From positions 128,001 to 192,000 of the forward strand of contig CAVUKA010000006.1 in NCBI GenBank assembly GCA_963741945.1: DNA of 64,000 bases, in the 5' to 3' direction. Position numbers: made by a program. This document shows, piece by piece, positions 36,001 through 39,000 of this stretch. The DNA comes from an uncultured Gemmatimonadales bacterium. Its GTDB lineage: Bacteria > Gemmatimonadota > Gemmatimonadetes > Longimicrobiales > RSA9. How positions within the stretch are numbered: position 1 is the first letter of the stretch; each line of letters starts with the position of its first letter.

Positions 36001-39000
36001 GAGTGGGATGGGCAGACGCTGGCGATCGACAACAGCAACTGCGTCAACTGCATGCACTGCATCAACGCCATGCCGAAGGCGCTGCGGCCCGGTGTGGACA
36101 CGGGTGCGACGATCCTGGTCGGCGCGAAGGCGCCCATCGTGGAAGGTGCGCAGCTCGCGTCGGTGATGGTGCCGTTCATGAAGATGGAGCCGCCGTACGA
36201 GGAGCTGAAGGACCTCACCGAGCGGATCTGGGACTTCTGGGGCGAGAACGGGAAGAACCGCGAGCGCGTGGGCGAGCTGATCCAGCGCGTGGGGCTGGGC
36301 AACTTCCTCGAGGCGATCGAGCTGGATCCGATCCCGCAGATGATCGCGCACCCGAGAGACAACCCGTACGTGTTCTACGAGGAATACTACGAGGAAGAGG
36401 AAGAAGAAGAAGAAGTGGCGGAAGCGCCGGACGCCGTGCCCGCGGGAGGGGCATGATCGGCCGGACCGTCTTCAATTGACCGCGCTTTGAACCATAGAAC
36501 GTGAGGAGAGATTCGATGGCGACGGAACAGAGACGAACCGATTTCGGGCCACCCGATTTTCGGCGCTTCCTCCCGCCCGTGATCAAGGAGAACTACGGGA
36601 AGTGGAAGTACCACGAGATCCTGAAGCCCGGCGTGATGGTGCACGTGGCCGAGTCCGGCGACGAGCTGATCACGGTGCGGGCGGGGTCGCCCCGACTGCT
36701 GAGCACGAAGCGGATCCGGAAGTACTCGGACCTGGCCACGAAGTATTGCGACGGCTTCCTCCGCTTCACGAGCCGGCACAACGTGGAGTTCCTGCTGACG
36801 AAGCGGGAGAACGTGGACCCGCTGATCGCGGATCTGGCGGAGCTGGGTCATCCGGTGGGCGGGATCGGCCCGGCCATCTCCAGCATCGTGCACACGCAGG
36901 GGTGGGTGCACTGTCACTCGGCGGCCACGGACGCATCGGGCGTGGTGAAGGCCGTGATGGACGACCTGCACGAGTTCTTCGACGGGACGCGGCCGATCCC
37001 GGGCAAGCTGCGCGTCGCGCTGGCGTGCTGCCTGAACATGTGCGGCGCCGTGCACTGCTCGGACATCGCGATCCTGGGCGTGCACCGTCGTCCGCCGAAG
37101 GTGCAGGACGACAACCTGAACAAGCTGTGCGAGATCCCGAACGTGATCGCGTCGTGCCCGACGGGTGCGATCCGTCCGGCCACGGTGAACGGCAAGCAGA
37201 CGGTGGAGATCGAGGAAGAGAACTGCATGTTCTGCGCGAACTGCTTCTCGGTCTGCCCGGCGCTCCCCATCGCCGACCCGCTGAACGACGGCGTGAGCAT
37301 CTGGGTGGGTGGCAAGGTCTCGAACGCACGGCACGAGCCGATGTTCTCCAAGCTCGCGATCCCGTTCATCGAGAACGAGCCGCCGCGCTGGCCGACGGTG
37401 GTGCAGAGCGTCCGGAAGATCGTCGAGGTCTGGGCGGACGGCGCGCGGCCGTACGAGCGGATGGGCGAGTTCATCGAGCGGATCGGTTGGCCGAAGTTCT
37501 TCGAGCTGGCCGACATCGAGTTCACGAAGGAGCACATCGACGACTACCGGTACGCCGGTCTGACGTACAAGCGCTCCACGCAGTTGAGGCACTAGGAGGA
37601 ACAATGGCTGTCACCACTGAACAGGTCGCCGACGCCATGTACCAGCTGGTGAGCGAGTACCAGGGCAAGAAGAAGTTCAAGGCCCTGGACCTCACCAAGG
37701 CGATGAAGGAGAAGTTCGGCGCGGACGCCGACCGGAACACGTGCAAGGACGCGATCCGAAGCCTGATCGACTCGGGTCGCTGCGTCTACACGTATTTCGG
37801 TGGCAGCTACATCGAGGTCCCGCACAAGGAAGGGGCTGCCGAGGGCGCCTGACGCCCCGAGCGGTCGCTGCGGGAATACACGAAGCACCCGACTCCGTCG
37901 CCCCCTCCGGGGGGCGGCGGGGGATGGGCTGAACGATACGAGCGTGAACCGGTCGCGTGAGGTGACGTATGGCTGTCAAGAAAGTAGTCAAGAAGAAGAA
38001 GTCGTTCGGTTCCCGCGGAGGCGGGGGCGGGCGCGAGCAGTCACCGCTGCGGCCGAAGCACGTGGAGAAGCGTCCCCCATGTCAGGACACGTGTCCCAGC
38101 GGCAATCGCATCCGTGAATTCCTGACCACGCTGGCGCAGGCGGAAAAGCTGGGCAAGACGCGGGAGCAGGCGCTTACGGAGGCGTGGGAGATCTACACGG
38201 ACACGAGTCCCTTCCCATCGGTGTGCGGGCGTGTCTGCCCCGCGCCGTGCGAAACGGAATGCAACCGTCGCGAGCTGGATGGCGCGCTGAGCGTGAACAA
38301 GGTCGAGCGTTCCATCGGCGAGTGGGGACTGGAGCAGAAGCTGGGGCTGAAGCGCCTGTCGGAGGAGATGAAGCCGCAGAAGGTGGCGGTGGTGGGCGGC
38401 GGGCCGAGTGGCCTGTCGTGCGCGTACCAGCTGGCGCGCCGGGGCTACGGGGTCACGGTGTTCGAGGCCATGGAGAAGGCGGGCGGGATGCTGCGCTACG
38501 GCATTCCGGGCTACCGTCTTCCGGAGCCGGTGCTGGACCAGGAGATCCAGCGGATCCTGGATCTCGGCGTGGAGCTGGAGACGGGCGTGAAGATCGGGCA
38601 GCAGATCACGATGCCCGAGCTGCGAGAGCGCTTCGACGCGGTGTACGTGGCGCTGGGGGCGCAGCAGGGCGTGCGCCTGGGCGTCGAGGGGGAGGACGCG
38701 CCGAACGTGTTCAGCGGCGTGGATTTCCTGAACCGGTTCCATCACGGGGAGAAGCTGGATCTGGGGCCGGACGTGGTGGCGATCGTGGTGGGCGGTGGGG
38801 ACACGGCCATCGACGCCGCGCGCATCGCGAAGCGGCTCGGCGCGAACGTGACGGTCCTCTACCGGCGGACGCTCGATGAGATGCCGGCGGTGAGGGAGGA
38901 AGTGGAGGAGGCGATCGCCGAGGGCGTGAAAGTGGAGTTCCTGGCCGCGCCGGTGGGCTTCGTGAAGGAGAACGGCCGCGTCACGGCGATGCGGGCGATC

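Follow-up and report, generated by a model that had tools for sequence, protein, structure and literature searches.

In Desulfovibrio vulgaris and Archaeoglobus fulgidus, DsrD binds to DsrAB and acts as an allosteric activator of its sulfite-reductase function (Ferreira 2022, PMC8794893). This canonical DsrD (DsvD in D. vulgaris) is a lysine-rich winged-helix protein of about 80 amino acids, its gene lies directly after dsrAB and it is confined to genomes with dsrAB; Ferreira 2022 describes it as free of cysteines. In Bilophila wadsworthia DsrB and DsrD are fused (Laue et al. 2001, cited by Ferreira 2022), which shows DsrD working as a stoichiometric component of the enzyme. Whether dsrD is present is one of the rules for telling sulfite reduction from sulfur oxidation in metagenome-assembled genomes with dsrAB (Anantharaman 2018, PMC6018805, Table 2; Diao 2023, PMC10591310). 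Starting from Pfam and proceeding to iterative custom HMMs, Anantharaman 2018 found dsrD in Zixibacteria, Planctomycetes, Ignavibacteria, Acidobacteria and Armatimonadetes, and Dalcin Martins 2018 described DsrD sequences with best matches in Gemmatimonadetes and Planctomycetes. The order dsrABD-dsrL-2 has likewise been published (Loffler 2020, PMC7596348; Diao 2023); the table of 950 genomes in Diao 2023 contains no Gemmatimonadota and no Planctomycetota.

Here we examined a window of 64,000 nucleotides from an uncultured Gemmatimonadales bacterium, which carries the cluster aprA-qmoABC-sat-dsrC-dsrMKJOP-dsrAB-dsrD-dsrL-dsrN (Table 1). As judged from its translation, the DsrL of this cluster appears to be of type 2, having YRR (within LYRRT) in the NAD(P)-binding domain and none of the DsrL-1A insertions; YRR is the DsrL-2 signature (Loffler 2020). 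No member of the DsrE family was found in the genome, which is 96.7% complete.

Table 1. Features of the sulfur gene cluster; positions count from the first nucleotide of the window unless marked otherwise.
Feature	Position	Strand	Remarks
aprA, qmoABC, sat	19399..28665	+	sulfate activation and APS reduction, upstream of the dsr genes; aprA TIGR02061, 877 bits (contig position 147399-149246); qmoC NF038018; sat NF003166; qmoA and qmoB HdrA-like
dsrC	29136..29450	+	TIGR03342, 122.1 bits
dsrMKJOP	30088..35162	+	NF038037, NF045796, NF038038, NF045797, NF045798, each over its cut-off
dsrA	35212..36456	+	TIGR02064, 581.9 bits (cut-off 392.85)
dsrB	36501..37595	+	TIGR02066, 485.9 bits (cut-off 341.5); stop codon TAG at 37593-37595
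Shine-Dalgarno-like GGAGG	37595..37599	+	4 nt 5' of the dsrD ATG, overlapping the dsrB stop codon; read from sequence
dsrD (P0001), probable, 82 aa	37604..37852	+	ATG, 82 codons, TGA; Cys47 and Cys60; DsrL-2-lineage type
Hairpin, 13 bp, G+C	37893..37922	+	no T run; in the 116-nt dsrD-dsrL spacer
dsrL, putative type 2, 559 aa	37969..39648	+	NF009410, 571 bits; YRR motif
dsrN (CobB-like siroheme amidase)	39653..41077	+	NF002204, 441.6 bits; name dsrN from context

A first-pass annotation of this DNA had placed a small gene, encoding the protein P0001, directly after dsrB and before dsrL. We found this gene to be real, with a gap of 8 nt behind the dsrB stop codon and a GGAGG of its own, and its position suggests translational coupling to dsrB. 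The window does hold many overlapping spurious ORFs, and the frame might be one more that opened by chance in G+C-rich DNA; we give this view next to no credence and reject it on conservation. P0001 has 1,242 homologues, the 120 closest homologues listed are 69-95% identical at the amino acid level and bear source names from several phyla, and the family alignment contains 24 invariant columns. The place after dsrB is fixed and the fold prediction is confident.

The claim that standard models miss the gene was borne out. PF08679 (gathering threshold 24.2 bits) did not match P0001 at E<=10 and had no match in the whole genome, and NCBIfam gave nothing for P0001 except one 15-bit chance match. 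We also reproduced the large family described as hypothetical: among the 120 homologues listed, none carries a Pfam domain, and the names given by the sources all read "hypothetical protein" except for three from JGI that are clearly erroneous. When 150 remote representatives were scored with PF08679, three passed the DsrD cut-off (the earlier count was 3 of 52) and five more matched below it. Relatives over the cut-off score just 24.7-27.3 bits; P0339, P0350 and P0371 pass at 24.7-26.1 bits while their siblings P0330 and P0336 fail, and near-identical siblings of PF08679 matches reach only 14-16 bits. The gene goes unnamed by Pfam and NCBIfam because the branch as a whole scores close to or under the PF08679 cut-off. 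Judged from sequence, the miss is a limit of the Pfam model, since DsrDs 43% identical to P0001 do pass it. Three samples of genomes that carry the family proved to be without canonical DsrD, with PF08679 over its cut-off in 0/50, 0/9 and 0/5, and the reading of "dsrD absent" as a false negative holds for Pfam-only calls in such genomes. A separate homologue search with P0268 as query returned 2 proteins only.

We next consider what the family is related to. By BLASTP, P0001 matched P0339 (25.3 bits with PF08679) at 43% identity over 76 aa (E 6e-23), and hhalign of the family against eight Pfam-positive DsrDs gave 99.6% (E 2.3e-24, 77 columns). The profile of these eight proteins had D. vulgaris DsvD (1ucr) as its top PDB match (E 4.5e-6); 1ucr was not matched at E<=10 when the PDB was searched directly with P0001 (phmmer), with a narrow profile (A1) or with a broad profile (A2). 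By these comparisons of sequence the link from the P0001 family to characterized DsrD is transitive, running through the Pfam-positive DsrDs. Invariant in the family are G21, K23, K24, K26 and Y62-T63-Y64-x-G66-G67-S68, and this lysine segment and wing align to their counterparts in the Pfam-positive DsrDs and in DsvD (YWSSGSTT). The lysine-rich turn before helix 2, a conserved K where helix 3 begins and the wing, Y-x-(Y/W)-x-(G/S)-G-S, are features shared with canonical DsrD, as is confinement to genomes with dsrAB. Unlike the canonical protein, the P0001 family falls below the Pfam threshold and lacks a direct HMM or BLAST match to 1ucr, has, besides two nearly invariant cysteines, a C-terminal E(V/L)PHKEGAA tail, and its gene is followed by dsrL-2 or dsrN. 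The Pfam-positive metagenomic DsrDs (P0339, P0350 and P0371; ...LVYGYFGGTTLELPHKEGSAN) share the tail, as ELPHKEG(S/A)A, and differ from P0001 in having no cysteines at 47 and 60. We conclude, with a probability of roughly 85%, that the ORF encodes DsrD, and an ordinary rather than a remote one; of the earlier description as a remote homologue, the homology stands and the remoteness does not, given the identity to a Pfam-positive DsrD.

AlphaFold2 predicted P0001 to be a winged helix (pLDDT 90.3) of topology H1-b1-H2-H3-b2-b3, with helices at 5-18, 27-41 and 44-57 and strands at 61-63 and 69-71, in keeping with its description as a lysine-rich winged-helix protein, and at 82 aa it lies within the size of DsrD (winged helices of about 70-90 aa). 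The match to 1ucr that had been offered as evidence proved non-specific, the fold being that of a generic winged helix. Foldseek with the P0001 model found nothing in the PDB at E<=0.001, and when the 1000 best Foldseek chains were aligned with VIA-align, 106 reached Z>=8, the winged helices of cullin WHB and Rpa2 coming first and 1ucr being absent among the best 50 entries. Fold alone therefore cannot identify the family.

To look at binding to DsrAB, we predicted the complex of DsrA(1-395), DsrB and P0001 in three runs with three controls. The predicted complex had an ipSAE, which is the model's own confidence, of 0.69 (runs 0.69, 0.74 and 0.65), and the best control had 0.00; the score mark used for complexes is reached by 116/157 solved complexes and by 2/215 mismatched pairs. 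Partner pLDDT was at least 81, and the runs shared at least 66% of contacts. In the PDB the DsvD sequence occurs in 1ucr and 1wq2 only, with no other DsrD-like chain at E<=10; we found no solved DsrAB-DsrD complex there, and therefore none for the model to copy. Predicted contact residues fall in invariant columns more often than expected, both in P0001 (14/21 versus 6.1) and in DsrA (18/25 versus 8.9), an enrichment that is not independent of the model, as the same alignments fed the prediction and the conservation count, and something other than DsrD may account for the conservation of the DsrA loops. From the model we infer that P0001 binds DsrAB, and by homology it would also activate it. 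dsrD presumably lies with dsrAB on a single dsrABD transcript, where its translation would keep pace with that of dsrB. The DsrD would most likely dock on DsrA and the ferredoxin domain of DsrB through the GKKKxKA turn, helix 3 (K48, R52 and D56) and the YTYFGGS wing, and would thereby speed up sulfite reduction in a Gemmatimonadota-like sulfate reducer, with electrons that probably come from NADPH and are delivered by the neighboring DsrL-2.

Two other functions can be weighed against that of an ordinary DsrD. A role as a winged-helix regulator that binds DNA and controls the dsr operon would fit the lysine-rich composition and the best structural matches, which include the DNA binders Fur, MarR, BlaI/MecI and linker histone. 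We nonetheless consider a regulator highly unlikely: according to Ferreira 2022, A. fulgidus DsrD bound promoter DNA no differently from control DNA and was present in the cell at a level matching that of DsrAB; in our complex model the conserved lysine turn, helix 3 and wing are predicted to face DsrA and DsrB; and the position of the gene points to coupling with dsrB. The cysteines raise the second alternative. Cys47 and Cys60 are present in 152/156 loci, and in its cysteines P0001 departs from the studied DsrDs, whose lack of cysteines and cofactor sites is a descriptive and not a defining trait. P0001 might be DsrD-derived and specialized for DsrAB-DsrL-2 with NADPH, either aiding the docking of DsrL-2 or acting as a redox gate via its cysteines, and the YRR motif in the window's DsrL, the presence of dsrL in the same locus in 139/156 cases and the fact that the family never occurred together with a Pfam-type DsrD (in the samples of 50 and of 5 genomes) all speak for this. 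Yet dsrN, not dsrL, is the next gene in more than half of the judgeable loci, the contact residues predicted by the complex model include neither cysteine, and remote relatives lack the cysteines and have V, S, G or F and L or T at these positions with no co-variation, swaps that fit buried hydrophobic positions. A Cys47-Cys60 disulfide is itself improbable from the secondary structure, because Cys47 opens helix 3 and Cys60 follows it. Specialization of this kind strikes us as improbable. It is also a long shot that the cysteine-bearing DsrD clade is tuned to NADPH-DsrL-2-DsrAB, with redox- or docking-dependent activation, and that its predicted seat on the glycine-rich loop of DsrA (57-71) and the ferredoxin domain of DsrB is the allosteric site left open by Ferreira 2022.

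An ordinary DsrD at this locus agrees with the DsrD that custom HMMs have found in DsrL-2 lineages (PMC6018805, PMC7596348, PMC10591310, PMC6018796), which has the same gene order, the same dsrD-dsrN pairing and the same taxa (Zixibacteria, Planctomycetes, Ignavibacteria, Acidobacteria and Gemmatimonadetes). Matched by taxa and gene order, the two are almost certainly the same family. Records of the named MAGs from that literature were absent among the matches listed by a locus search centered on Zixibacteria and by a scan with a degenerate DNA pattern. An HMM built from the eight Pfam-positive DsrDs, as an emulation of the iterative custom-HMM method, found 157/157 family members. With DsrD in such lineages and the dsrABDL-2 order already in print, the novelty of the finding falls away; what had been flagged is a correct annotation gap in known biology, and specialists' own models already find such DsrD. 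The literature we searched contained no statement that Pfam misses a DsrD clade of this kind. New are the complex model with its controls passed, the two nearly invariant cysteines and the conserved hairpin after the gene. For pipelines that rely on PF08679 or NCBI models the whole branch is scored "dsrD absent", and Lavy 2019 is a published case in which PF08679 was the sole model for dsrD; such false absences could misassign the direction of sulfur metabolism or leave genomes unclassified. Judging by the names among the 120 homologues listed, GenBank entries of the family remain "hypothetical protein". A wider Pfam seed or an added NCBIfam model would be the remedy, and the predicted DsrD-DsrAB interface offers concrete residues for mutation.

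Across genomes, the family lies directly after dsrB in 153 of 154 judgeable loci (156 distinct loci), as had been claimed. The accompanying claim that dsrL follows held for the closest relatives and not for the family as a whole, where the next gene is dsrL in 70/147 and dsrN in 77/147 judgeable loci; the dsrAB-dsrD-dsrL layout applies to only about half of the family. In 401 sampled genomes of the window's phylum, dsrB exceeded its cut-off in 9, and the family was present in the same 9. Scans of GTDB species genomes yielded 282 stretches in one case and 377 in another (the sets overlap), labeled as Gemmatimonadota, Planctomycetota, Zixibacteria, Ignavibacteria, Acidobacteriota, Myxococcota and some Desulfobacterota.

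Unlike in B. wadsworthia, dsrB and dsrD are separate genes in the window, and the fusions to DsrB and DsrL-like proteins reported for metagenomic representatives look like frameshift read-throughs. P0173, P0258 and P0190 read out of frame past a break and pick up again where the next gene itself starts, and P0192 and P0252 are fragments spanning dsrD and the start of dsrN; the apparent DsrB-DsrD and DsrD-DsrL fusions are probably frameshift or gene-calling artefacts. Sub-threshold PF08679 matches in Zixibacteria ORFs of 318-401 aa, considered as further fusions, were treated as chance; that of locus L173 looks, by eye, aldo/keto-reductase-type.

The spacer between dsrD and dsrL is predicted to be structured, the stretch 37850-37970 folding at -58.7 kcal/mol (z -1.96). 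A hairpin of -20 kcal/mol or lower occurs in 64/65 dsrD-dsrL spacers versus 3/60 dsrD-dsrN spacers, and is possibly an attenuator or a 3' stabilizer.

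The open reading frame of X (P0001), the 82-aa protein encoded between dsrB and dsrL, was recovered exactly as the first-pass annotation had described it, and only 8 nt separate the dsrB stop codon from its ATG. A single strand (window 19399-41077) carries aprA, qmoABC, sat, an OsmC-like gene, dsrC, dsrMKJOP, dsrAB, dsrD, dsrL-2 and dsrN, and this gene set therefore forms a complete sulfate-reduction supercluster within the window. Its nearest relatives are labelled Gemmatimonadota. The neighbouring DsrL has the YRR motif, by which Loffler 2020 (PMC7596348) recognises the NADP(H) specificity signature in DsrL-2, and no member of the DsrE family (PF02635) was found in the genome (96.7% complete). 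dsrN is directly followed by a tandem pair of cytidylate-kinase-like genes (PF13189, with weak matches to TIGR02173). An open reading frame between dsrC and dsrM had no NCBIfam match and could, by its position, be a candidate dsrT; a later true start is probable because the listed frame overlaps dsrC.

Features of the window and residues in contact in the predicted DsrAB-X complex
Feature	Position	Strand	Remarks
aprA	19399-21246		further upstream of X
qmoA, qmoB (HdrA-like), qmoC, sat, OsmC-like gene, dsrC, dsrM, dsrK, dsrJ	further upstream of X		
ORF between dsrC and dsrM	29339-30091	+	candidate dsrT
dsrO, dsrP	upstream of X		NCBIfam, over curated cut-offs
dsrA	upstream of X		TIGR02064, 581.9 bits, over curated NCBIfam cut-off
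dsrB	directly upstream of X		TIGR02066, 485.9 bits, over curated NCBIfam cut-off
GGAGG	37595-37599	+	overlaps TAG stop of dsrB
X ORF	37604-37852	+	ATG, 82 codons, TGA
Hairpin	37893-37922	+	13 bp, G+C, no T run; 3' of dsrD
dsrL	downstream of X		NF009410 (NAD(P)-binding iron-sulfur flavoprotein), 571 bits, over curated cut-off
dsrN	neighbour of X		CobB-like amidase, over curated NCBIfam cut-off
Cytidylate-kinase-like genes	41091-41744, 41617-42567	+	
Predicted X contacts	residues 21-24, 26-28, 48, 51-52, 55-56, 58, 62-68, 76		
Predicted DsrA contacts	residues 57-62, 64-68, 71, 136, 156-159, 196-198, 200-201, 344, 349-350		
Predicted DsrB contacts	residues 210-211, 213-214, 218, 247, 250-252		

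As had been claimed, Pfam and NCBIfam miss X: the Pfam DsrD model (PF08679) gave no match at E<=10 to the protein or to the complete genome translated in all six frames, the top Pfam matches were DUF2492 and an MCM4 winged helix (13 bits each), and NCBIfam returned a single 15-bit chance match. A word-indexed search reproduced the 1,242 homologues. The 120 that were listed all lack a precomputed Pfam domain; their source names read 'hypothetical protein' except for three evidently mistaken JGI names.

We then searched a 45-member family profile against 1.84 billion representatives and obtained 168 matches at E<=0.001. Among the 150 listed, three (P0235, P0262 and P0268) passed PF08679, and five others scored 17-20 bits. 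Starting from these intermediates, a further search returned 1,160 proteins, mostly without Pfam annotation, including P0339, which matches PF08679 at 25.3 bits. X and P0339 are 43% identical over 76 residues (E 6e-23) and have the C-terminal ELPHKEG(S/A)A in common. By hhalign, the 45-member family matched eight Pfam-positive DsrDs with 99.6% probability (E 2.3e-24, 77 columns), and the profile of those eight had D. vulgaris DsvD (1ucr/1wq2) as its top PDB match (E 4.5e-6); searched directly against the PDB, X and two profiles, one narrow and one broad (47 sequences), missed 1ucr at E<=10. The X gene is dsrD, and the identity to P0339 together with the hhalign result refutes its description as a 'remote homologue'. 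The weak point lies in the Pfam model itself: P0330 and P0336, though near-identical to P0339, score only 15.8 and 14.1 bits against PF08679.

The 1,160 matches of that further search (P0272-P0384, 76-92 aa; some labelled Nitrospirota or Thermoanaerobaculales) form a second large DsrD-like set that is also mostly invisible to Pfam, with PF08679 on only 6 of 120 listed proteins, so that what Pfam misses extends beyond the X clade. For Pfam and NCBIfam alike, the gap in annotation is real, wide and worth repairing. Our literature search found no printed statement that either collection misses the X branch; Lavy 2019, in its available text, uses PF08679 as the sole dsrD marker.

Fold alone cannot identify the family as DsrD. 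An AF2 model of X from a 47-row alignment is a winged helix (pLDDT 90.3, pTM 0.78), with which Foldseek found nothing at E<=0.001. When its 1000 best chains were realigned with VIA-align, 106 reached Z>=8, led by cullin WHB, Rpa2 and other winged helices, and DsrD was not among the best 50 structural entries; the fold match is thus not specific, as the caveat that many winged helices score alike had anticipated. The fusions to DsrL-like and DsrB proteins also fell away. P0173 and P0258 (X with DsrL-like domains) and P0190 (DsrB C-terminus with X) each contain an out-of-frame-like stretch, after which the next gene restarts with its own N-terminus, and we read all three as products of frameshifts or faulty gene calling on G+C-rich metagenome contigs, rather than genuine fusions. 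Two more representatives, P0192 and P0252, are fragments that extend from X into dsrN.

Two scans of GTDB species genomes gave 282 and 377 stretches that encode relatives, in records labelled Gemmatimonadota/Longimicrobiales, Planctomycetota (Pirellulales, Phycisphaerae), Zixibacteria, Ignavibacteria, Thermoanaerobaculia, Sumerlaeota, Myxococcota/'Deltaproteobacteria', Elusimicrobia and other groups; with a motif scan we further recovered MAGs bearing the labels Desulfobaccales, Syntrophobacterales and Desulfobacterales. In a tblastn census that used proteins of the window as queries (156 distinct loci, after removal of three duplicates from 159), the proposed position after dsrB held in 153/154 judgeable loci; in the exception (L158), dsrB is matched only in part (residues 5-240 of the 364 in the query). 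Of the 147 loci in which the next gene 3' of X could be judged, 70 have dsrL there and 77 have dsrN, so that the proposed dsrAB-X-dsrL layout describes the closest relatives (Gemmatimonadota, Planctomycetota) but not the Zixibacteria/Ignavibacteria half, where the order is dsrAB-X-dsrN-dsrL. A dsrL was present anywhere in the locus in 139/156, and in three loci it precedes dsrA. Across 401 genomes sampled evenly from the window's phylum, dsrB passed its cut-off in nine, and the X family occurred in exactly those nine, adjoining dsrB. These carriers of the dsrAB-dsrD-dsrL cluster are spread across 7 families, a scatter that suggests lateral spread.

Judged by PF08679, the carriers have no canonical DsrD elsewhere. 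The model was not over its cut-off in any of 50 genomes carrying the X family, nor in the nine carriers of the window's phylum or five Desulfobacterota-labelled carriers, and the X family thus takes the place of DsrD and does not accompany it. Eleven of the 50 had weak matches inside long unrelated ORFs, comparable to 7/14 control genomes, and the only sub-threshold matches in the five (17.4 and 15.8 bits) were the X family gene itself. In Zixibacteria, ORFs some 320-400 aa long also give repeated sub-threshold matches (15-17 bits); considered as DsrD fusions, these were rejected as chance matches, the one that was read (L173, G513:C22) resembling by eye an aldo/keto-reductase-type enzyme.

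The biology, gene order and taxa of X are already in the sulfur-cycle literature. Anantharaman 2018 (PMC6018805) built custom HMMs from Pfam DsrD matches for a second search and reported dsrABCD in 78 genomes, including Acidobacteria, Armatimonadetes, Ignavibacteria, Planctomycetes and Zixibacteria; with these HMMs, Dalcin Martins 2018 (PMC6081815) obtained DsrD best hits including Acidobacteria (18), Planctomycetes (9), Armatimonadetes (4) and Gemmatimonadetes (3). Emulating this iteration with an HMM of the eight DsrDs that pass PF08679, themselves reached by searching outward from the X family, we recovered 157/157 family proteins at 63-90 bits (X at 81.5). Hausmann 2018 (PMC6018796) reported dsrD and dsrN as a recurring pair, tabulated gene numbers in an xlsx supplement and noted that residues conserved in D. 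vulgaris DsrD are retained in the acidobacterial protein, Loffler 2020 named the 'dsrABDL-2 arrangement' and listed DsrL for Gemmatimonadetes and Planctomycetes, and Klier 2024 and Neukirchen 2023 describe clades with DsrD and DsrL together. Table S1 of Diao 2023 (PMC10591310) gives dsrD = 1 for both Zixibacteria MAGs; since PF08679 passed its cut-off in 0/151 sampled Zixibacteria-phylum genomes, these calls must rest on a model that detects the X family. That census of 950 dsrAB genomes, in its available text and Table S1, has no Gemmatimonadota or Planctomycetota; dozens of GTDB species genomes so labelled carry the dsrAB-dsrD-dsrL cluster. The sole new leads are a complex model and two cysteines.

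DsrA (1-395), DsrB and X were folded jointly with a separate alignment per chain. The median ipSAE was 0.69 (runs 0.69, 0.74 and 0.65; best of three controls 0.00), partner pLDDT was at least 81 and at least 66% of contacts were common to the runs. The ipSAE mark, met by 116/157 solved complexes and 2/215 mismatched pairs, is only a rough guide here because we used our own alignments and three chains. The model supports binding of X to DsrAB, predicting DsrB contacts in or adjoining the ferredoxin domain (Pfam Fer4_7, 217-254). Invariant columns make up 14/21 predicted contacts in X (6.1 expected), 18/25 in DsrA (8.9) and 6/9 in DsrB (3.3), a count that shares its alignments with the model and so cannot be taken as independent of it. 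In the PDB the DsvD sequence occurs only as free protein (1ucr, 1wq2) and a DsrD profile matched nothing else of DsrD type at E<=10; hence we found no solved DsrAB-DsrD complex for the model to recall. Ferreira 2022 (PMC8794893) reports that DsrD pulls down DsrAB, along with binding by SPR and activation, and its available text leaves the site on DsrAB open.

The same study stresses that DsrD is cysteine-free, whereas the X clade has Cys47 and Cys60, both present in 152/156 loci. Such conservation may reflect a redox role; distant relatives have V/S/G/F and L/T at positions 47 and 60, respectively, without co-variation, and both cysteines fall outside the predicted contact set. We read them as buried positions.

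Among related loci, 64/65 dsrD-dsrL spacers (from L001-L080; median gap 118 nt) contain a hairpin of <= -20 kcal/mol in the best 50-nt window, with z <= -2 against mononucleotide shuffles in 47/65, and the same threshold was reached in only 3/60 dsrD-dsrN spacers (median gap 32 nt). The hairpin 3' of dsrD may act as an attenuator or as a stabiliser of the 3' end, and in this way fix the ratio of dsrABD to dsrL.
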